A stretch of DNA of 64,000 bases from a virus, in the IMG/VR virus record IMGVR_UViG_3300046330_000229, positions 1 through 64,000 of that record; one strand, given 5' to 3'. This document shows positions 16,669 through 52,591 of the stretch, one piece after another; within the stretch, counting starts at the first letter, position 1; the number at the start of each line of letters is the position of its first letter. The translations under genes and the position numbers were made by a program. The notes under the pieces were generated by a model. It saw only the letters and a program-made list of their open reading frames with translations, searched no databases and had not been told where the DNA came from.

Positions 16669-16896
16669 ATGGCACATAAAGGTAAATTTATAGGTGTGTA
16701 TACGTATAACAAACAGAAAAACAGATATATGGCATACTTAACTGAGGGCGAAACCGTCAAAATGTATTATGCTAGAGGTGAGGGTGTTACTATACATCTA
16801 AAAGTTTTAGAAAGTGGAACTTTGGTTACAACAAACTTAGATGTAGCAGTATTATACATGTTTGTTACAACGGGAGAGTTGTTTGATGCTGGATAA
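16669..16896 (+). CDS. Small paralog family A, member 1
   Basis: C-terminal LVTTNLDVAVLYMFVTTG. Confidence 0.6.
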   Translation: MAHKGKFIGVYTYNKQKNRYMAYLTEGETVKMYYARGEGVTIHLKVLESGTLVTTNLDVAVLYMFVTTGELFDAG

Positions 16897-17122
16897 AAAT
16901 AAGACATATTATGGTTGTTATATTAAAAAAAGGTATTATAAGGTGTTTTTTGAAAGAGGTACGTGGCACTCTCACGATACACAGTATACTGCATCTGAAA
17001 AAATAGACGAAGATGTTTTGGAACATAGTGTGACAACTAATCACTTTGTGATAATAACAAGCGATGAAAAGGTTTGGCGCACTTATATAGACGTTTTAGG
17101 AATCAAGTGCAAATGGTATTGA
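16886..17122 (+). CDS. Small paralog family A, member 2
   Basis: C-terminal IITSDEKVWRTYIDVLG; ATG at 16886 preferred to the ORF-track start at 16862. Confidence 0.55.
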   Translation: MLDKNKTYYGCYIKKRYYKVFFERGTWHSHDTQYTASEKIDEDVLEHSVTTNHFVIITSDEKVWRTYIDVLGIKCKWY

Positions 17123-17334
17123 TGCGAATAAACAGAGGTCACAACTATGAGTATATAATAGATGATATAGATATAAATTATAACTATATACAGAGATATT
17201 ATGCTCTTACTGGTACACAGCGAAAATTACCGTATGACTTTTTTGCTATGGACTCTAAAAGATTTGAAATAGTAACAGAAGATGATAATGTTATTCGTAT
17301 AATGTGGTGGGTTATGACTGGTAAAATACTATGA
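17116..17334 (+). CDS. Small paralog family A, member 3
   Basis: C-terminal IVTEDDNVIRIMWWVMTG; start uncertain (ORF track 17074; in-frame ATGs at 17113 and 17122). Confidence 0.5.
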   Translation, partial: VLMRINRGHNYEYIIDDIDINYNYIQRYYALTGTQRKLPYDFFAMDSKRFEIVTEDDNVIRIMWWVMTGKIL

Positions 17335-17522
17335 TATTGTATAGATATATTGACGAGTTTTGGGTTGACGTTCAATGGGGCGAAGATTATAGCATGCGTT
17401 ACTACCAAGACGGCAAACACGTCCCTATCCATGTCAGCAATGTAACTTTGGCCGATTATAGTTGTGACAACAGGGATGTAATACGTAAATTTTGGAAAAT
17501 GTGGACAGGTAATGACATATAA
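17331..17522 (+). CDS. Small paralog family A, member 4
   Basis: C-terminal SCDNRDVIRKFWKMWTG. Confidence 0.6.
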   Translation: MILYRYIDEFWVDVQWGEDYSMRYYQDGKHVPIHVSNVTLADYSCDNRDVIRKFWKMWTGNDI

Positions 17523-17733
17523 AATGTATAGAATTAATAATATTTTGTATGTAACATTACATGAAAATTCTGGTATGCACTCTATAGTTTGTTGTGTTCC
17601 AGGAAGTGTTCACTACAATCGTATCCAATTTGAATACCCAGATTATTTGTTAGAAAACGACGATTTAGTCAGCGAAGATCAGCCTAGTATAATTAAATAT
17701 ATAAAGTTATTTGGTAGAACTGATTTACTATAA
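17512..17733 (+). CDS. Small paralog family A, member 5
   Basis: C-terminal LVSEDQPSIIKYIKLFG. Confidence 0.6.
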   Translation: MTYKMYRINNILYVTLHENSGMHSIVCCVPGSVHYNRIQFEYPDYLLENDDLVSEDQPSIIKYIKLFGRTDLL

Positions 17734-31212: not shown

Positions 31213-32031
31213 TTGAACAAAGCTATTATTATCGGAGTATTAGGAGTAACGTTACTCGCGGGCACTGTTGTAGTCAGTGGAAACTCGTCAACACCAGAAG
31301 TATCAACAACATTAATTAATGTACCGCAGTTAGGTGGAACTGAAACTTCCAGCAAGCCTGGATCACAAGAGGGAACTGTAGTACCAACCACAGTAAGCGT
31401 TACAAAAATTAGCGTGGATTCATCAGCGGTGTTGAAATTTAATGTCCCAGTCGTAACTGAATCAGTAGATATTGCTATTGACTTCTTATCCAAGTCAACT
31501 GCTGATAAGATCTATTTAGAATTAGACAGTCCTGGCGGTAGTGTGGTTGACGGTGCACGTTTAATTGAGTACATTAAACATTCTAAAAAGAATATCTACA
31601 CGGTGTGTAACAATTTTTGCGCGTCTATGGCGTTTCATATTTTTCAAACAGGCAAAGAGCGTCTTTTAGTTGACAAAGCTATTTTGATGGCGCATCCTGC
31701 GTCTGGTGGCGCACAGGGTACTTTAGAAAATATGAGTGAACAGTTAAAAATGTTCCGACTATACGTTGATCGGATGGACGCTGATGTTGCTAAGCGTGCT
31801 AAAATTGACTACAGTGTATTTAAAACTATGGTGGCTAACAATTTATGGGTAGAAACTCCTGAAGCTCTTGCTCTATCTCTTGCTGACAAAGTTGTACACT
31901 TAGAAGTTAATTATTCTGGATTTTCTGGAGATCGAGAATCGGTAACGGATGTTATGCAGATTATGCGCGATAAAAAATTATGGAATGATCGCATTTCTAA
32001 TATTAAAGGTTATCAGTTCATTTTAAAATAG
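31213..32031 (+). CDS. ClpP/S14-like serine protease with N-terminal signal/TM segment
   Basis: LDSPGGSV, CASMA (catalytic Ser), MAHP (His); hydrophobic N-terminus and T/S-rich linker. Confidence 0.8.
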   Translation: MNKAIIIGVLGVTLLAGTVVVSGNSSTPEVSTTLINVPQLGGTETSSKPGSQEGTVVPTTVSVTKISVDSSAVLKFNVPVVTESVDIAIDFLSKSTADKIYLELDSPGGSVVDGARLIEYIKHSKKNIYTVCNNFCASMAFHIFQTGKERLLVDKAILMAHPASGGAQGTLENMSEQLKMFRLYVDRMDADVAKRAKIDYSVFKTMVANNLWVETPEALALSLADKVVHLEVNYSGFSGDRESVTDVMQIMRDKKLWNDRISNIKGYQFILK

Positions 32032-32294: not shown

Positions 32295-32819
32295 ATGAAA
32301 TTTAAAGTTGGAGACGTTGTTACAGCAAAGGACTACGGCATTGAAGCTGGGTATGTTTTGACTTCTTTCATGGACGGTTCATCTGAAGTTTATGAAATTA
32401 AAACTACTAACGGGTCTATGTATTTTGATGGCAACACCTTAAGTCTATACACTCCTCCTATGATAGAAATCACAGATACGAACACTTCTGAAGGTGTTAA
32501 ATTTGACCAAGGTAAGCCTGATTTAACCGACATTCCTTTAGAGGCTATGTGGGAAATGGGAAAAGCTTTTACCTACGGTCAGAAAAAGTACGGCAAATCA
32601 AACTATCGCAAAGGTATGTTGGTTTCTAGACAACTTGCTGCAGCAATACGACATGTGTATCAGCACTTAGACGGAGAGACTATTGATCCCGAATCTTCTG
32701 CTTTTCATCTCGGGCACGCGTTGGCTAGTATTTCAATGGCTATTTATAATTTAAAAAACAACCCACATTTAGACGACAGGTTTCCTGGGGATTTGAAAAA
32801 ACATGAAACAAGTAAATAA
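32295..32819 (+). CDS. dATP/dGTP diphosphohydrolase (DUF5664 family) with extra N-terminal domain
   Basis: GVKFDQGKP, TYGQKKYG..NYRKG, AAIRH, DPES..HLGHA motifs. Confidence 0.8.
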   Translation: MKFKVGDVVTAKDYGIEAGYVLTSFMDGSSEVYEIKTTNGSMYFDGNTLSLYTPPMIEITDTNTSEGVKFDQGKPDLTDIPLEAMWEMGKAFTYGQKKYGKSNYRKGMLVSRQLAAAIRHVYQHLDGETIDPESSAFHLGHALASISMAIYNLKNNPHLDDRFPGDLKKHETSK

Positions 32820-34621: not shown

Positions 34622-35584
34622 ATGTCTAGTGTATTTCAAAAACATTCCGGTAAATATTTATTGGCTAGCAAATCTGAGATATTTGAGGAACTTCCATCTG
34701 ACGTATATACCGTACAAAACACACGTGAAGGTGTATTCTTTACACCATTAAAAATTCAAAAAGATTCTTTAATCCGCGTACCAAATTCTATCACTGATGA
34801 AGTTGTGTCTTTTATTGAAAACTTTACAAAACAAGAAACAAAAGAACGATATAAACAGTGTAAAATTACACACAAAACTGCGGTATTGTTACACGGAACT
34901 GCTGGATCAGGTAAGTCTGGAACATTAAATCTAATTATAGATGATATAGTAAGAACCGGCGGCATTGTTCTTTTTGACACTGATCCTAAGTTAGTTGCAG
35001 CCATTTTACCCGCTTTACGCGAACAAAATCCTGAAAAACTTATTTGTGTGGTGTATGAAGAGTTTGATGAATGGTTGCAGTCAAGTCAATCCACTATTAA
35101 TTCTTTTCTTGACGGACAATTAAGCGTTAATAATATGGTAGTGTTAGCCACTACAAATTATTTATCGCGCATTCCTAGTAGGATTAAAAATAGACCATCG
35201 CGATTTCAACTAGTGAAAGAAATTGGCGTACCGTCTGCTGAATTTAGACAAGAATGGTTATCTCGCAAGCTAGAAGAAATTGGTCAATCTGATAAGTTGG
35301 CGGAAATGGTACAAGTATCTGACGGTATGGTTGTGGATCAAATGAAAGATTTAATTGTATCACACATCGCTTTGCAGATTCCTTTGCACGAGGTGGTGAA
35401 AAAGTTACAGGACATGTCTTCTAACGCAGCAGGCATGGACGACTACAATGACTTCGAAACGCAGAAGCATATAAATGCTTCAAATGAACGTTTTAAGCTA
35501 GAAAAGGTTTTTAAAGCTCTTTCTGTACCTAATATAGTGTCTTTGTCATCTCAAAATGAACCAGAAGAGCCTACGGATTGGTAG
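34622..35584 (+). CDS. AAA+ ATPase
   Basis: LLHGTAGSGKS, VYEEFD, LATTNY, RIKNRPSRF. Confidence 0.85.
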   Translation: MSSVFQKHSGKYLLASKSEIFEELPSDVYTVQNTREGVFFTPLKIQKDSLIRVPNSITDEVVSFIENFTKQETKERYKQCKITHKTAVLLHGTAGSGKSGTLNLIIDDIVRTGGIVLFDTDPKLVAAILPALREQNPEKLICVVYEEFDEWLQSSQSTINSFLDGQLSVNNMVVLATTNYLSRIPSRIKNRPSRFQLVKEIGVPSAEFRQEWLSRKLEEIGQSDKLAEMVQVSDGMVVDQMKDLIVSHIALQIPLHEVVKKLQDMSSNAAGMDDYNDFETQKHINASNERFKLEKVFKALSVPNIVSLSSQNEPEEPTDW

Positions 35585-35662: not shown

Positions 35663-36730
35663 ATGAATATTAAAGAATTAAAACAGTTTTTACCATACGC
35701 ATTAACAGTGAAAGCTTCCGTTATGATTAACGGTTTACACGGCATTGGTAAGTCTCAGCTAGTAAAACAATTTGCTGACGAGAATGGATTAGATTTTATC
35801 GACATCCGATTATCACAAATTGATGCTACAGATTTGATCGGTTTACCTGATGTGTCAGGTGAAACTACTAAATTCAAGCCGCCAGCTTGGTTACCTCAAG
35901 ACCCAAATTCTAAAGGTATTTTATTTCTAGACGAATTATTTCGCGGTCGTCGTGACGTATTACAGGCTGTCTTTCAATTAGTACTAGACAGAAAGACCGC
36001 TTCTTATTGTCTACCTGAAGGATGGCACGTTGTGTCAGCGAACAATCCCTCGACTGACGACTACGACGTAACTAACGTATTTGACGCTGCACTATTAGAC
36101 CGTTTCTTACATATTAAACTTGAGCCAACAAAAGCTGAATGGTTTGATTACGTAAAGAAAGATGAATCAGTTGATCAGATGTTTGTTGAATACCTACAAA
36201 CACAAGAAGGTATGATTGAAGACTCCACACTAAAAGCTGCTGACTTTAAACGTAAACCTTCACGCCGATCTAATCACTTGGCTGGGCGCTTATTAAAAAC
36301 AGGACTACCTTCAAATCTAATGATCGAAGCTATTGCCGGACTTGTTGGTATCGAATCAGCCATCGCTTTTGATGCTTATAAAAAAGATAACGAAACTGCC
36401 CCGTTTAAACCAGAAGAAATCTTAACTAAACTTAAAGATATTAAAGATAAAGTAGTTAAGTATGCTGACATGGAAAAGGGTAGACATGACGTACTAACTG
36501 TGTCTTTAGACAACTTACGTATGGCTATTGAACAAAAGCAGCCTACAGTTAAACAAACCGACAATCTAGTTGTTTTCTTAAAACTTATTCCTAAAGATAT
36601 GTCTGTTGGATTTGTTCGAACACTTGCTGTAAGTAATATTAAAGAAGTTACGGCATACTGTTTAGAAGTATTGTTCAAACACCCAGACATTGATGAAGCA
36701 TTAGGTTTACCAGCAAAAGAGAAAGCTTAG
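35663..36730 (+). CDS. MoxR-like AAA+ ATPase
   Basis: GLHGIGKS, DIRLSQ, DLIGLP, ILFLDEL, SANNP, DAALLDRF, PSRRS. Confidence 0.88.
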   Translation: MNIKELKQFLPYALTVKASVMINGLHGIGKSQLVKQFADENGLDFIDIRLSQIDATDLIGLPDVSGETTKFKPPAWLPQDPNSKGILFLDELFRGRRDVLQAVFQLVLDRKTASYCLPEGWHVVSANNPSTDDYDVTNVFDAALLDRFLHIKLEPTKAEWFDYVKKDESVDQMFVEYLQTQEGMIEDSTLKAADFKRKPSRRSNHLAGRLLKTGLPSNLMIEAIAGLVGIESAIAFDAYKKDNETAPFKPEEILTKLKDIKDKVVKYADMEKGRHDVLTVSLDNLRMAIEQKQPTVKQTDNLVVFLKLIPKDMSVGFVRTLAVSNIKEVTAYCLEVLFKHPDIDEALGLPAKEKA

Positions 36731-36738
36731 TACTTAAT

Positions 36739-37917
36739 ATGAAAAATAATCCATTAACTGACACAGTGTCGTCTATGTTATCCGAATTTCCATACTACGC
36801 ACAACTGCTGTTGTGTATGGATAGACGATTAACAGACCAAGTACCGATTGCTGGAGTATCCTTCAAACACGGTCGAGTTACTTTACACATTAACCCTAAT
36901 ACGTTTAATACGCTAACACCGTCACAACGTAAAGGGGTTTTATTACACGAATGTTGTCATATTATTTATAATCATTTCGGTAGATTTGAATTAAATAACA
37001 AAACTAACATTGCTACTGATCGCGTAATTAATGAAATAGTTAATAAGGTGTACTACGATAGTATTCCCGATGTATTAAATGTAGAAGGTATTGGTGACGT
37101 TAGACCGATTACGCCGCTTAATTTTAAAAGCTATTTAAAACCTAATACTCCAGTTCTTGAATTTCAACCAGCAGAGTATTATTTAAGTCTTCTTAATACA
37201 GAAGGTAACGGTAAAGCTGACGAGCCTCAAGAATTTAATTTTGATGATCATTCTGGTATGGATTCAGAAGGTGACGGAGCGGGATCAGCAAATGAAGTGA
37301 TTAAACAACAAATTCGTGCTATTTTAAATAAAGCTAAGGAAAAAACTAAAGCTATGGCTGGCAATATTCCTTCAGATGTTCTACTAGCCTTAGATGCTAT
37401 GAATAATGATACGCTGCCGTGGAATGCTGTACTACGTAAATTTATTGATAAAGCTACAGACGTTGTTCTTGATGGATCTAGAAAAAAAAGAAATAGACGC
37501 ACAGGCTTACTAGCTCCAGGAATTATTAAAGAGCCTAAGTTAAAAATTGGTGTAGCTATGGATACATCTGGTAGTGTTAGTGACGATTTTATTTCTGCAT
37601 TTTTAGGAGAACTAGATAAAATTTACGGTACAGGTATTACTGATATCCGTGTAACTTTTGGTGATACAGTACCGAACGATGTTGTACAATATAAGCCTAG
37701 AACTAAAATGAACATGTCTGGACGTGGCGGTACGTTATTTCAACCATTCTTGGATAAGTTAAATGACGAAGATGTTGATGTAATTGTTTACTTCACTGAT
37801 GGCGATAATTATGATACTATTCAAACAAAAATTCCCGTGTTATGGTGTCTATGTCCTAACTATTCAATACCTAAAGGCGCTAAAGAGCGCGACTGTGTGA
37901 AGATGAAACTTGGCTAG
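36739..37917 (+). CDS. Metallopeptidase-vWA protein (DUF2201-like), MoxR partner
   Basis: LLHECCH (HExxH), NIATD..IN, MIDAS DTSGS, GRGGT, YFTDG. Confidence 0.85.
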   Translation: MKNNPLTDTVSSMLSEFPYYAQLLLCMDRRLTDQVPIAGVSFKHGRVTLHINPNTFNTLTPSQRKGVLLHECCHIIYNHFGRFELNNKTNIATDRVINEIVNKVYYDSIPDVLNVEGIGDVRPITPLNFKSYLKPNTPVLEFQPAEYYLSLLNTEGNGKADEPQEFNFDDHSGMDSEGDGAGSANEVIKQQIRAILNKAKEKTKAMAGNIPSDVLLALDAMNNDTLPWNAVLRKFIDKATDVVLDGSRKKRNRRTGLLAPGIIKEPKLKIGVAMDTSGSVSDDFISAFLGELDKIYGTGITDIRVTFGDTVPNDVVQYKPRTKMNMSGRGGTLFQPFLDKLNDEDVDVIVYFTDGDNYDTIQTKIPVLWCLCPNYSIPKGAKERDCVKMKLG

Positions 37918-38068
37918 TGATACATCTTTACATTTTTATGTACAACAGATAGGTGTTACGCCTATGTCCGAATTATTAGAGCAAATTAAAAGATACCGAC
38001 TATGGAGAGAAGGTATGTCAAAGATTACTTCTTTGTATTTTACTGACGGAAGGTTTAAAAATGAATAG
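37910..38068 (+). CDS. Family B micro-paralog (IGxxP), not in the ORF track
   Basis: TTG start; MASDTSLHFYVQQIGVTPMSELLEQ...; 52 aa; overlaps both neighbours. Confidence 0.55.
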   Translation: MASDTSLHFYVQQIGVTPMSELLEQIKRYRLWREGMSKITSLYFTDGRFKNE

Positions 38069-38389
38069 TACAACAACGGCTATATGTAGTAAAATTGAAG
38101 AGATTATCGGTACATTTAAAAGTAAAATCCGAACAGCAGAAGCTTTAATGAAAGTGTTGGAGACGTTATCTCTTTATGAAGTTGGGATTGATAAAAATTC
38201 ACACAGACTATATCATTTTAAATATAAACTTATTAATGACGTGAGTAGTAATGAAGTACAATTTAAGATTGTAGCATTTCCTATTGACGCTTTAATGGGA
38301 GAACAAGATAGAGTATTATCAGTTGATGACTTACAAAATAATTACTTACCCTACTCTGTTAGTACAAGACAGGTGTTACCGGATAAAAA

Positions 38390-39498
38390 ATGAAAATAGA
38401 CCTTGGAGTACTGGACACACCTTATATATACATAATTCCTTATATGTTAGGTAAAACTTCTATTACTTGGTGTTTTATTTACCAAAACGCTATTATAAAG
38501 GCTAACACAGATGTGTGTGTTTCTAGTACAAGATTCTGGCGCTTAACTGAGATACTGTCTAAAAGATTTGGAATTGTTATATAATGAGACATTGGACAAG
38601 TAGATTCTTGCATAGAGAAAATAGTGCTAGCCACGTTTTTATATTTAAAATTCTATGTTTTTATTTAGGCAAAGTTCCTTTAAAATATTTGTCTGTGTAC
38701 ATAGAGATGTTGTGTAGAATAAGTTTTTCACAAGAAGTGGAATTTCTTAGGTATAGTAAAATAGACCAATACCTAGATAAAAGGCTTGTTAGACAATACG
38801 GGAGACATAATGTTTAAGGTGGGTAAGTGGACAAAGTACGCAACACAGCCTGATATCATTACCACACACGTACTAGGTAACTTAACTAAACACATAGGCA
38901 TTATGCCGATGGTAACTTTAACTAAATATGTAGAATTTATGTACCGTATAAAATTCGATAGGACTGTTTCAGCAGCTAGATACTACCGTCTTCGCCCTTA
39001 CTTACTAAGACGAATTACTAGACAATACGGAGTAATTCGGTGAATAATTTGAATAATTATACCTACGCTACGTTTTTTAATAGAAACTACCTATGTATAG
39101 CTTTGATGAAAAGAATCGGACAAATGCCCATGCGTTTTATACTACTATATACAAAAGCTTTGTATCATTCATGGAATAACTATATGTATTTAAAAACTGG
39201 TCCAGTTGGTAAGTATGACCGTTTATGTGAATGGTTAATGAAACGATATAACATAAGGTTTAGATAAATGGTCAGGTACGAATTTTTTATAGAAAGTGAA
39301 TTTACTGTACGACACCTTCGGACCGCAGTGGGTGTGATTCCTTGTAGAGTTATAGCCTTTTGGATTAATCTTATATGGAACACTTATTGCGATAGCTCAA
39401 GACAAATGACATACTTGAGATATAATAAATTGTGCGACCGAGTGATTAAACGTTATCCGCAAATTTTTGTTGACAAACCTACCTATTCTATGATATAG
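38390..39498 (+). other. Five family B micro-paralog CDSs (38390, 38584, ~38810, 39040, 39268)
   Basis: MLGKTS, YLGKVP, HIGIMP, RIGQMP, AVGVIP; shared C-terminal Y..L...L..RY/F pattern. Confidence 0.65.
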
Positions 39499-39523
39499 TG
39501 ATAGTATACCGCAAGGAGTTATA

Positions 39524-39898
39524 GTGAAAGATTTAGTGATGCCTAGGCTGTTAAAAGTTGTCGATATTTCAGCACCAGATAGACGTAACAGGATATATAC
39601 AAAAGTGCACATGTTCATGATGGACAGCGACCATTTTTTACGCCTAGCTAACTCGTTTAACTATGGTGAAATTTCAGCACTGGAGTGCCGAGTGGGTGTG
39701 TGCGTTAAACATCCCGACGATGACCATAATCCCAATTATAGCCAAGAGTTGGCCGAGTCTAGGTATAAGAAAATCTTATCTCGCATATTACATATCCTTA
39801 GTACCCCGAGCGAAGTTGTTATACAAACCGAGCATTACAGAATCGAGTATAGCCGGCTCGATCACTCATTATTCGTATCAGCTACCTCGCCATTATGA
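39524..39898 (+). CDS. Hypothetical protein
   Basis: AAGGAG RBS and sigma70-like promoter upstream. Confidence 0.55.
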   Translation: MKDLVMPRLLKVVDISAPDRRNRIYTKVHMFMMDSDHFLRLANSFNYGEISALECRVGVCVKHPDDDHNPNYSQELAESRYKKILSRILHILSTPSEVVIQTEHYRIEYSRLDHSLFVSATSPL

Positions 39899-40131
39899 GT
39901 GGCCGCCCTCGTTAAAATTTGACGCAATACAGGCCGCTCTAATAATAACTTTTCGTCTACAAAACATAATACTCTAACACATATCTAAGGTTATTAGTTT
40001 TAGGGCATTAATAACCAAAAATGACTATTAACTTTTGCCTTACAGGATATATAAATAGTGCTTCAAATCGAATATAACAGCAACAGAAGAAAAGACTTGA
40101 CTTTATACTCTGTGTGTGGTATTGTTATTAT

Positions 40132-42024
40132 ATGAGCGCGTACAATATACCAAAAGCTGTGTTAGAACGGGTACTTAGCGGATTAGGGGTGGCCCCTTCT
40201 GCAAATATTGCACGCCTTTTATGTGCTTTGGAATGTTACTATACAACCTCTTACGAGTCGGATTCTGAGTTATTTGATGAAGTGGCTACCCTCAATATTA
40301 AAGAAAGACTAAGAAAGTTCTACCCAACAAAGGACTATTCTCAGATTTACTATTACGAAGAAGCTCGGGTTACAAAACTTAACATAGAAAAGTTATTAGA
40401 TGAAGCAGCCGTATGATGCTATTGTCAAACAGGCCTTCACTGACTATATAGGAGTGGCTCCTATGTCTGCTATTTTAGCCTACATAGACGATTATTTAAT
40501 AGTTACATGGAAACATTTCGGCTGGGTTACTGTTGAAAATCCCACACCAAGCTTATATAAGGCAGCGTCGGCAGTGTCTAGACATATAGACATACACGGT
40601 ATAGAACATCGATATGACGCAACCAACGCTAAGTGGATAGCTTATATTAGACAGGAGCAGATATGACGTACGAATTGAATCATGAAGCCCGTCGAATAAT
40701 ACTATCTCTTATTGGAGTAGCTCCTATGGAAGTTATTAATTTACATTTATCAAATCTTGAAACTAGGACACCAGCACGAAGTTATCGATGGGCACTTATA
40801 CGTGAATATGACCATATTAGGATGTACCCAACTATTGATAATGTTTGTCTTTTAGGTGATGACGGCAGATGTTATTATTACAATAAATATCAAGAGTATA
40901 TGACTGTATGGGAAGCTACAATATGACAGTGAGACACCACATATCATCCTTTATCGGTATTGTACCCATGGAACTGATAACGAAGTCATTACTTCATTAC
41001 GGAGGGTGCCATTATGACATCGGGGCCGCGTGGGTGCTACATCCTAAAAATAAGACCGTTAAGCTCTATAGAGCAGCCAATAGCGATTTACACTTAAGTA
41101 CTGACGGTGAGATATACATAAGTGATAGATGGGCCTTATTTAGATTAAACAGGATTTCTTTATGAATAAAGATATAGGCTATCTAGTTGAAAACATTGGT
41201 ATAATACCTACAAAGGTTATTACATTAGCTATTAAAAAAGAACTACGGCGTTGTGACACAAATCGTGGACATTGGTCGGAAACAGCAGAACCGAGTACAT
41301 ATTGGCCCGTTATGTACTCAGAAGAGATATATTACATTGACGAACAAGGTGAGTTCTATTATACAGCATTTGATGGGTCATGGCAGATATGGAGAGAGTC
41401 TCGTGACTAAAGAAGAGTTTGTAGAACTAGTGGGTATTATGCCTTCAAACGAGCTATTACTGTGCTGGGAGCGTTCTACTGACGAACGGAATGAAAGACT
41501 ACGCACAGGCAGGTCTACCGGCTACGCGTGGACTGAAATGGACGGACTACCTATGTGTACGTTATATCGAGTTAATCGTAACTGGTTGTACGGATCTGAT
41601 GGTAATTGCTATATATTAGATGTATCAGAAGAGGTAGGCCTGGAAGTGTGGCATATATGGGAGAAAGTGTCATGACAATAGCTCAAACTATAATGCAAGG
41701 ACTGGGAATTATGCCTACAAAGGTTATAGCTAATCTATTAAAAGAATACAAGGGTGTTGGTGACTACAAAGTACACACCGTATTATGGAGGCGTGCTGGT
41801 AGTAAAAATAACAAACATAAATTCTTATGTAAAGGACATAGTACTAGTTATTACCACGATGTGTATACAAATGGTAAGAGATTGTATTTAGACACAACTG
41901 GAGGAATGTTCCTTATTCCTAATACGGAGAAACAAGCCTAATGACAATACGAGATGTGATAGCTTCCAGCATAGGGGTTATACCCGCCCACAATGTTAAA
42001 GAGTTATTAGCTTATAATGATTGA
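40132..42024 (+). other. Eight family B micro-paralog CDSs (40132, 40400, 40663, ~40923, 41162, ~41403, 41672, and a short 27-aa one at 41941)
   Basis: GLGVAP, YIGVAP, LIGVAP, FIGIVP, NIGIIP, LVGIMP, GLGIMP, SIGVIP near each N-terminus. Confidence 0.7.
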
Positions 42025-42110
42025 ACTGAGGTTATTAGTTATATAGTGCTTAGCGAGCTAGTGAGACTGTCACCACGGCCCATCGCGTATACACCTCCTA
42101 CCCCCCTATA

Positions 42111-42380
42111 TGCAAACTACATGCCAACTCTCCCCTTGCAAGAACTATACCAACGTATTGTTTTGATACATGGTATGATACTTGCACTCTTCAATATTCA
42201 TGCCTACTATATTTATATACATCCAGCATTGTATGTGCATTGACCATTGTCAGTGTCCTATAGACGTATAGCGACTCTATCTACAGAGGAGCTATATGTT
42301 TGTGTATGTATCTATTATCTTTTAACTATAGACTTATTACAGCGTGTAATGATGTTGTGCATTCTGGTATATATATTGCA
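42111..42380. promoter_or_regulatory. Cluster of sigma54 (-24/-12) boxes
   Basis: Minus strand: TGGCATGTAGTTTGCA (42111-42126) and TGGTATAGTTCTTGCA (42137-42152); plus strand: TGGTATGATACTTGCA (42171-42186) and TGGTATATATATTGCA (42365-42380); all GG-N10-GC. Confidence 0.75.
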
Positions 42381-42655
42381 GAGTGTGTATTCTTTATGTG
42401 TTATATATTCGATATGGTTGTGTTAGATCGTATATGTTTGTTATAAGGCGTGTTTGTGTGTCTATTCATTTATACCTACATATAACCACTATCTATCTAT
42501 ATCTTGTCAACCTTTATTTATTTTGGATACACCTCTAGATTATTAGGAGTCAATCCGTTTATTACAATGTATCTTTTGGATATCAAGGTTGTACATAAGG
42601 TACGATATACTTCAGATATTCGATACGATATTCTAATAATACGCATCTTATATAT

Positions 42656-42800
42656 ACTAGAGTAGTTGTCCGCCTGTCCCTTATTTACAGCTAGGGATTA
42701 GGTGCTCTCTGTTAGCTTAGTCCGATCTTAGCCTTGATTTTTACTCTTAGCCTCAAATAGTTCTTATCGTATTGTTTACGGTCTAGCTCTAGTTATCTTG
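42656..42800 (-). ncRNA. Candidate late-expressed structured RNA or leader
   Basis: Downstream of a late-promoter motif; closing stem ACUAGAGCUAG / CUACUCUAGU; internal UCCCU/AGGGA stem. Confidence 0.45.
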
Positions 42801-42814
42801 TCTTACTATATATG

Positions 42815-43024
42815 TTAACCGTGCTTAGTTACATGGATTATGTAATGTCTAGCTGCGGATAAAATATCTTTTGGATATCCTTTTTTATTATTTGAATGTT
42901 CAGCAATGTGCGGTGCGAGCTTTAAGCAAAATTCTATATCGTTTCTTAATAACGCTAACTCAAAAGCTTGATCTACATTAGTCTGTATTTTTCTATTCTT
43001 ATATCGTTTTCTTTTTACTGTCAT
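42815..43024 (-). CDS. Small basic hypothetical protein
   Basis: MTVKRKRYKNRK...; own TTGACA-17-TATAGT promoter (43062-43034). Confidence 0.5.
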   Translation of the reverse strand: MTVKRKRYKNRKIQTNVDQAFELALLRNDIEFCLKLAPHIAEHSNNKKGYPKDILSAARHYIIHVTKHG

Positions 43025-43058
43025 AATCTCATTACTATACACTATATTTTGTACACTG

Positions 43059-43086
43059 TCAAGTAAATAATCACTAATGCCGATAA
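43059..43086 (+). promoter_or_regulatory. sigma28 (FliA)-type promoter
   Basis: TCAAGTAA-N12-GCCGATAA. Confidence 0.7.
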
Positions 43087-43188
43087 GTGAATAACTACAT
43101 TATGTTAGCCGTTTTCTAATATCTTTATTTAAAATATATGCTTATAAGTTTTACACTGTCAGATAGCCGCTTGTGCTTTAAATTACAC

Positions 43189-43217
43189 TTGACACGGCAC
43201 TACGATTGCAATACACT
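43189..43217 (+). promoter_or_regulatory. Nested sigma70 and sigma54 promoter
   Basis: TTGACA-N17-TACACT, with CGGCACTACGATTGCA (43195-43210) occupying the spacer. Confidence 0.75.
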
Positions 43218-43254
43218 TAATCAAGATGCTCAAACATAACAAAAGGATAAAACA

Positions 43255-51994: not shown

Positions 51995-52591
51995 ATGGAG
52001 TTAAACCAAATGACAATACAATTACCAAGTCCGTATATATGGGTTACAGAGTTTAACGATCAAGCTGTTCAAAAGTTCTTTGACCAGTTTACACAAATGG
52101 AATCAGATCCTACCATTGAGGTCATCACCGTTGTGATAGATAGTTTTGGCGGACAAGCTTACTCTATGTTTGCTATGCGCGATTTAATCAAAACTAGTAA
52201 GAAGCCGGTTTCAACTGTAGCTCTAGGTAAGGCCATGAGCTGCGGGGCGTGGTTGTTAGCTGCCGGTACAAAAGGACTACGTTACATTTCACCTAGTACT
52301 CATGTCATGATTCACCAGATCTCTTCAGGTGCGGCTGGTAAACTAGAGGACATGAAAGTGGATTTAAATCACAGCACAGATTTGAGTGTGCAAGCTTTTA
52401 ATTTGTTAGCCAGTGATATTGGTATGCCGGTCAATAAACTTAAAGCTTTAGTTAAGGGTGAAACTAATTCCGATCTTTACTTAACACCTAAAGAGTGCTT
52501 GAAGATGAAGATTGTTGATTTTATAGATATACCTCGTATGGCATTTATTCCACCTATGCAAACATTAACCACTAATGTTAAGAGACGATAA
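51995..52591 (+). CDS. clpP: ClpP-like protease (cytoplasmic)
   Basis: IDSFGG, GKAMSCG (Ser), VMIHQ (His), DLYLTPKEC. Confidence 0.88.
   Translation: MELNQMTIQLPSPYIWVTEFNDQAVQKFFDQFTQMESDPTIEVITVVIDSFGGQAYSMFAMRDLIKTSKKPVSTVALGKAMSCGAWLLAAGTKGLRYISPSTHVMIHQISSGAAGKLEDMKVDLNHSTDLSVQAFNLLASDIGMPVNKLKALVKGETNSDLYLTPKECLKMKIVDFIDIPRMAFIPPMQTLTTNVKRR

Follow-up and report, generated by a model that had tools for sequence, protein, structure and literature searches.

A tandem array of small paralogous proteins sharing an N-terminal helical hairpin in the accessory region behind a MoxR-vWA module of an uncultured phage

Tandem multigene families are a recurrent feature of viral genomes, with examples including MGF110, MGF360 and MGF505 of African swine fever virus, the gene accordions of poxviruses and the small-paralog arrays of jumbo phages. 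In such families, many adjoining, diverged copies lie on the same strand, are translationally coupled and retain one constant segment; the copies occupy accessory regions that differ between relatives, and neighbours are more alike than distant copies. A similar organization is found at positions 37910-42024 of a 64-kb stretch of DNA (hereafter the window), which comprises the first 64 kb of the 82,265-bp IMG/VR virus record IMGVR_UViG_3300046330_000229. At this locus, 13-14 homologous genes lie on the plus strand, and their similarity decays with distance along the array. Several features set it apart, however: the array encodes a different protein family for which no homologue was found, its constant part is N-terminal, its tails fall into two structurally distinct classes, and its copies are distributed among three junctions of a module whose other genes are conserved. 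The family is new, in that it is an orphan, and it belongs to a kind that is already known, namely the lineage-specific tandem multigene families of phages.

The open reading frames (ORFs) of the array are real genes that are paralogous to one another, with selection acting on the protein. In a six-frame scan of the whole genome, the motif [ILV]G..P was found in frame at 13 places, from 37949 to 41971, in consecutive plus-strand ORFs. At the rate observed outside the array, it would be expected only 0.21 times in the 1,077 residues of the members (Poisson P = 2.5e-19), and in 20,000 residue shuffles the count never rose above four. An earlier note on this DNA had proposed about 14 tandem micro-paralogs here and had set enrichment over shuffled ORFs as the test of the proposal; both the array and the enrichment hold, with 13 members carrying the motif in frame and a fourteenth, at 38390, being a probable member without the Pro. 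The plus strand of the array is 93.6% stop-free in frames of at least 60 codons, whereas 1,000 shuffles averaged 14% and never exceeded 42%. Moreover, 13 of the 15 array junctions abut or overlap by 1-17 nt, most starts are preceded by Shine-Dalgarno-like words, and independent gene calls in a public protein collection list the same proteins. Two starts were corrected: a 140-aa ORF is better taken to begin at GTG 41403 and a 111-aa ORF at ATG 41672. An SD-like AGGAG or AGGTG lies inside the motif at three sites; a true start at a Met directly after the Pro was rejected, as Met occurs there in only six of the 13 members and the upstream helix is conserved as protein. Promoter and terminator scans gave nothing above shuffles.

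The conserved block spans about 26 residues. Taking the [ILV] residue as position 0, hydrophobic columns are found at -8, -4, 0, +8 and +12 and the Gly at +1, and the Gly and Pro are invariant among the 13 motif members. This pattern is that of two amphipathic helices joined by a G-x-x-P turn, a layout with which the AlphaFold2 models of both subfamilies agree. With a profile hidden Markov model (HMM) of this N-terminal block, the scores of the 13 members run from 23.7 to 34.4 bits, whereas no other ORF of the genome exceeds 9.3 bits. Downstream of the block, the proteins diverge into two subfamilies. Subfamily A comprises 38584, 38786/38810, 39040, 39268 and, with a question mark, 38390; its members are basic (isoelectric point (pI) 9.1-10.3), with tails carrying the pattern [RK][YF]x[RK][LI]...L.[KR]R, and are predicted to be all-helical. 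In the 38810 member, for example, helices are modelled at residues 5-11, 16-28, 34-46 and 54-73 (predicted local distance difference test (pLDDT) 63). Subfamily B comprises 40400, 40663, 40908/40923, 41162, 41403 and 41672, with pI values from 4.6 to 9.8 and W/Y-rich tails marked by W, LY and DG-x-[YF] landmarks. Its predicted fold consists of two helices and five strands, the helices lying at residues 7-16 and 22-33 in the 40663 member (pLDDT 69). Three members stand apart: 40132 joins the hairpin to an acidic tail of its own, 37910 is a miniature of B type and 41941 consists of the hairpin only. Counted broadly, subfamily B has eight or nine proteins. Leave-one-out HMMs recover the members within each subfamily at E values from 4e-8 to 0.03, with 38390 borderline at 0.11. 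Thus, profile and structure predictions agree on the division into helical basic and W/Y-rich beta tails that had been noticed by eye, and the architecture of a constant N-terminal module with divergent C-terminal bodies is likewise supported.

The relationships among the copies further bear on how the array arose. Adjacent pairs have a Z of 4.7 versus 1.9 for non-adjacent pairs, and similarity falls with distance (Spearman -0.33, p 0.0013); that adjacent copies are more alike than distant ones therefore fits stepwise tandem duplication. Pairwise protein identity among the copies is 20-33%, in keeping with the old expansion and strong divergence suggested previously. The same note had found no obvious DNA similarity, which is mostly so, except that a likeness of 19-31 nt persists at the motif; because DNA likeness is confined to this short segment, the copies must be old. 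Such extreme divergence, together with one member cut to 27 aa, another that has lost its Pro and a clonal population in which no current turnover is seen, could also be expected if the genes were mostly functionless, drifting remnants of an old duplication burst. This explanation is quite improbable, however, since all 14 frames remain open and coupled despite a genome G+C content of 35%, and the invariant Gly and Pro, along with the hydrophobic periodicity, point to purifying selection.

A conserved motif in tandem genes may in principle be selected as nucleic acid rather than as protein. The motif DNA is near-palindromic (ATAGGnn-NNN-nnCCTAT), the reverse strand also reads IGxxP at seven sites, and motif residues 3 and 4 covary, V occurring with A or T and I with M, I or V, which at stem position 7:11 amounts to G:C versus A:T. 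On these grounds, a DNA or RNA hairpin serving as a promoter, processing site or recombination site might be the selected feature, with the protein motif as its by-product. Stem pairing is, however, not above that obtained by synonymous-codon resampling of the same peptides (p 0.12-0.29). Split by codon position, the information around the motif amounts to 10.4, 15.7 and 5.9 bits for positions 1, 2 and 3, a clear three-base periodicity with third positions nearly free; because it is the first two positions that are conserved, the motif belongs to the protein. The Gly...Pro spacing dictates a GG...CC word in the DNA and therefore a palindromic look by coding alone, and the covariation, which tracks gene neighbourhood, is explained by shared ancestry. 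In addition, the motif sites are found 10-40 codons into their ORFs, Rfam gave no match, and the genome lacks an N4-type gene for a giant virion RNA polymerase, none of its ORFs being longer than 1,389 aa. The terminator scan flagged the best-paired motif copy (40446-40466, plus strand), in which a 9-bp stem is followed by a T-rich run; this copy falls within the 40400 gene and is read as a by-product of the IGVAPM codons. The hairpin explanation is already largely refuted and we regard it as exceedingly improbable. A caution follows for other genomes: a conserved G-x-x-P peptide can mimic a hairpin repeat in DNA, which in the present case is fully explained by coding.

Searches for relatives yielded nothing beyond the phage itself. 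No family member matched Pfam or PHROGs, and the family has no match among PDB sequences. With profiles of both subfamilies, a word-seeded search of 5.8 billion clustered proteins recovered the phage's own proteins and near-identical variants of them, and nothing else. When 1.84 billion representatives were searched exhaustively with HMMER profiles, the phage's own proteins were accompanied by three non-self matches (P0009, P0010 and P0012); these were judged spurious and rejected as homologues, being long Ig, PKD or repeat proteins matched over 6-7 short stretches. The profile search that had been proposed as a check thus found no known family and no homologue other than the phage's own proteins. 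At the nucleotide level, the array matched no cultured phage, and tblastn of one member gave chance matches only (E >= 1). Foldseek searches of PDB and BFVD returned nothing at E <= 0.001, whereas VIA-align gave best Z scores below its stated noise level, namely 3.9 for the B tail (Tudor, SH3 and integrase C-terminal domain-like) and 5.9 for the A model (generic helical). The ESM Atlas offered no usable feature match and only structural neighbours of low TM. From these models, an SH3/Tudor-like barrel is weakly suggested for the B tail. Literature searches turned up no account of the family or of an array placed behind MoxR-vWA.

Among known folds, the block may be compared with helix-turn-helix (HTH) domains of the Xis or HTH_17 type, with which it shares a helix, a Gly turn, a second helix and similar hydrophobic spacing. 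The hydrophobic pattern around the Gly resembles the HTH turn pattern h-x-x-h-G-[VI]-S-P-x-T-[VI], and the DG-x-Y / W segment of subfamily B loosely recalls the wing of excisionases. The members, above all those of subfamily A with their basic charge and three or four predicted helices, might accordingly be DNA binders with a variant helix-G-x-x-P-helix HTH, acting as regulators or nucleoid binders. Several features make this unlikely. Within the block, the Pro at G+3 is invariant, the register is shifted one residue from the canonical motif, and the second helix is largely hydrophobic. No Pfam HTH family was matched by nine members at E <= 10 or by ten members at E <= 1, nor was there a PDB sequence match; fold searches did not retrieve HTH domains and gave generic helical matches only (Z <= 5.9, from the A model with pLDDT 63). 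Half of subfamily B is acidic, and an insert of 35-45 residues separates the hairpin from the "wing." The models themselves show helices throughout in subfamily A and two helices before the beta domain in subfamily B.

A different precedent is provided by the internal proteins of phage T4. IPI, IPII and IPIII combine an N-terminal capsid-targeting sequence with variable bodies, are encoded at a hyperplastic locus and serve counter-defence in the case of at least IPI. The array shares with them a short conserved N-terminal segment followed by variable bodies at a hyperplastic locus, and by this analogy alone the hairpin could be a virion-targeting signal that sends the proteins into the capsid for injection with the DNA. 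There is, however, no sequence similarity, and the segment is a 26-residue helix hairpin in the array versus a 10-residue leader in T4. The array also belongs to the non-structural arm, its strand being opposite to that of the virion genes; the hairpin is absent from all remaining ORFs of the genome, among them the structural ones, and alignments reveal no consistent protease cleavage motif after it. Such targeting is therefore very unlikely.

The position of the array invites comparison with systems in which a MoxR AAA+ ATPase is paired with a vWA protein, such as RavA-ViaA and the phage DUF2201 pairs. Upstream lies a conserved module of three plus-strand genes, encoding an AAA ATPase (34622..35584; Pfam AAA, E 1.6e-6), a MoxR-like AAA+ ATPase (35663..36730; Pfam AAA_5, E 4.7e-7) and a metallopeptidase-vWA protein with DUF2201_N and DUF2201 domains (36739..37917; Pfam E 2e-15 and 2e-10). 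The array follows the MoxR-vWA pair on the same strand, as the earlier note had described, and its first member overlaps the vWA stop codon. That note had also suggested that a constant docking motif is combined with variable specificity domains in a repertoire of adaptors or anti-defence proteins, which possibly feeds the adjacent peptidase. In its fuller form, the family would be an adaptor or substrate repertoire in which the hairpin docks on the MoxR-vWA machine and the tails bring targets, as the constant handle, the variable bodies and the existence of a hairpin-only 27-aa member might be taken to indicate.

This arrangement was compared with the nearest available relative, the Joint Genome Institute contig Ga0163144_10063201 (L083), whose vWA protein is 41% identical to that of the array phage. 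L083 keeps the AAA ATPase, with a homologue at the equivalent relative place, as well as the MoxR and vWA genes. Directly behind them are orthologues of two genes that in the array phage lie within the array and are not members, 38061 (E 3e-11) and 39524 (E 2e-14). In L083, these two adjoin each other and are coupled to the vWA stop, and no family member is present. Because L083 has the module and both non-members without any member, the family can be said to fill three junctions, holding 1, 5 and 8 copies, in a module that is conserved apart from them. In the equivalent downstream region, at L083:5821-6340, there is instead a tandem pair of small paralogs of its own (53% identical, E 9e-33), unrelated to the array family; the contig ends at this pair, which may be part of a longer array. 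Since a relative without members carries its own unrelated tandem pair there, the locus looks like a variable accessory region. Homologues of the vWA protein occur in N4-like and other phages at 25-28% identity, and metagenomic relatives at 67%, 43% and about 40%, some of them on 81-83 kb contigs. In the N4-like phage nACB1, the MoxR-vWA pair is followed by replication genes and no member. Among 160 MoxR-vWA loci (80 from IMG/VR and 80 from metagenomes, about 1 Mb in the first 80 alone), none has a member, and single-protein locus searches of IMG/VR with the vWA and MoxR proteins found no close relative. The family does not extend beyond this phage lineage.

Known MoxR/vWA pairs have no small-paralog array attached, and the array described here is interrupted by two conserved genes that are unrelated to it. 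Because the association is not conserved in L083, nACB1 or the 160 loci, docking on the MoxR-vWA peptidase loses weight, and an adaptor repertoire for that module is unlikely. By analogy with F-box and PRANC proteins, the hairpin might also be a docking handle either for the AAA/MoxR/vWA module or for a ClpP-like protease, such that the members would be programmable adaptors delivering host proteins for remodelling or degradation; we give this proposal a rather small chance.

The reading that we favour, though tentatively, is that the array may represent a tandem expansion of small binders belonging to the non-structural programme and directed at different host targets, in takeover of the host or in counter-defence. 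Repeated tandem duplication and long divergence have produced a lineage-specific multigene family of small non-structural proteins. The shared N-terminal alpha-hairpin of about 26 residues, with its [ILV]-G-[VI]-x-P turn, would be an inherited folding or oligomerisation core, while the divergent C-terminal modules, basic and helical in subfamily A and W/Y-rich, small and five-stranded beta in subfamily B, would confer specificity. This expansion of binders fits where the array lies, an accessory hotspot within the non-structural arm, as well as the occurrence of similar arrays in other phages; a counter-defence or anti-defence repertoire is a reasonable guess. Several points weigh against it. 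The function is deduced solely from how the proteins are built and from their genomic context. The two subfamilies are joined only through the hairpin (hhalign P 6e-4, probability 29%, 22 columns), and the structure models, at pLDDT 69 and 63, are of moderate-to-low confidence and were built from 9 and 5 sequences, respectively. The natural population is near-clonal: four DNA sequencing runs are essentially identical, with no joints or indels in the array and no sign of ongoing diversification. Finally, the comparison relies on one informative relative, L083.

Gene by gene, the array, all of it on the plus strand, begins with a 52-aa member (37910..38068), in which an IGVTPM hairpin is joined to a short B-type tail with W and TDG-x-F (N-block HMM 33.9 bits; leave-one-out E 0.0015). 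L083 lacks a counterpart of it, and there the vWA stop is overlapped by the gene that comes next. This gene and the last member, at 41941, were two copies proposed in the absence of listed ORFs, and both are upheld by their N-block scores. The second junction follows the non-member 38061..38393 (110 aa; the BLASTP match in L083 noted above), which lacks the motif and matches neither Pfam nor PHROGs. At 38390..38584 lies a 64-aa protein with LGKTS and no Pro that was missed by the N-block HMM; it is considered a probable degenerate subfamily A member because its tail resembles those of 38584 (Z 5.2) and 38786 (Z 3.5). Four further subfamily A genes follow: 38584..38817 (77 aa, LGKVPL; BLASTP E 5e-9 to 38786, leave-one-out E 4e-8); 38810..39043 (IGIMPM; 77 aa from ATG 38810, with GGAG upstream, or 85 aa from TTG 38786; E 2e-8); 39040..39267 (75 aa, IGQMPM; E 1e-5); and 39268..39498 (76 aa, VGVIPC; E 3.5e-4).

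The second non-member, 39524..39898 (124 aa), precedes the third and longest run. This run opens with the 94-aa LGVAPS member at 40132..40416 (100 aa from GTG 40114), which has the lowest N-block score, 23.7 bits, and is related to 41672 (Z 8.1) and 41941 (Z 6.2). The members of subfamily B are 40400..40666 (88 aa, IGVAPM; leave-one-out E 5e-5), 40663..40926 (87 aa, IGVAPM; E 8e-7), 40923..41165 (IGIVPM; 80 aa, or 85 aa from ATG 40908; E 4e-8), 41162..41410 (82 aa, IGIIPT; E 2e-5), 41403..41675 (90 aa, VGIMPS; E 0.02), whose GTG start is preceded by GGAGAGAG, and 41672..41941 (89 aa, LGIMPT; E 9e-5), which has an ATGA overlap with the preceding stop. The last member, 41941..42024, consists of 27 aa with IGVIPA, that is, the hairpin alone (N-block HMM 29.7 bits; leave-one-out E 0.0055), and starts at a TAATG overlap with GGAG upstream. 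A further ORF with LLGVNP at 42504-42665 was rejected as a chance match, as the N-block profile does not recognize it. The 15-mer CTRAGGTTATTAGTT occurs in near-identical plus-strand copies at 39985-39999, after the 39524 gene, and at 42026-42040, directly after the last member. The pair is not significant, two matches being reached in 19 of 100 shuffles; where the copies lie does hint at a terminator or promoter element common to the two gene blocks. On the 3' side of the array is a gene-poor stretch of about 1.2 kb (42046-43250) with skewed, repetitive composition and one short minus-strand ORF (42815-43042).

Assembly from freshwater metagenomes gave the record as a circle with an end repeat of 24 nt, and the virus is an uncultured phage. 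Its virion module, with a P22/SU10-like portal and a T4-type terminase, lies on the minus strand, and the non-structural genes occupy the plus strand from 31.2 kb to 78.5 kb. The closest cultured match of the portal, at 27% identity, is from a phage that infects Silvanigrella, and the host group of the array phage is poorly known. Within the virion module, five small aromatic-rich tandem ORFs ("family A," distinct in name from subfamily A) are found on the plus strand at 16669-17733, as known from the ORF list. Two ClpP-like protease genes are present in the non-structural arm, both on the plus strand, one upstream of the array (31213-32031) and one at 51995-52591. Behind the latter lie three small paralogs ("family C") that were rejected as kin of the array family (hhalign P 0.73). 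Also upstream of the array, on the plus strand, is a gene whose product matches the N-terminal domain of MazZ-type dATP/dGTP diphosphohydrolase (32295-32819, 174 aa; PF18909, E 2.7e-24). Enzymes of this type are known from phages with 2-aminoadenine genomes. Because no PurZ-like adenylosuccinate synthase gene was found in the genome, the MazZ-like gene may serve another function in the dNTP pool.

Small diverged paralog arrays make up about 5% of this phage genome, and annotation misses them because all of their members are orphans. Behind the AAA-MoxR-vWA genes lies what looks like a hotspot where different lineages expand different small families. If the tails of the array family bind different host targets, they would constitute a natural panel of small binders on one scaffold and could reveal targets of defence or takeover in a poorly known group of hosts.

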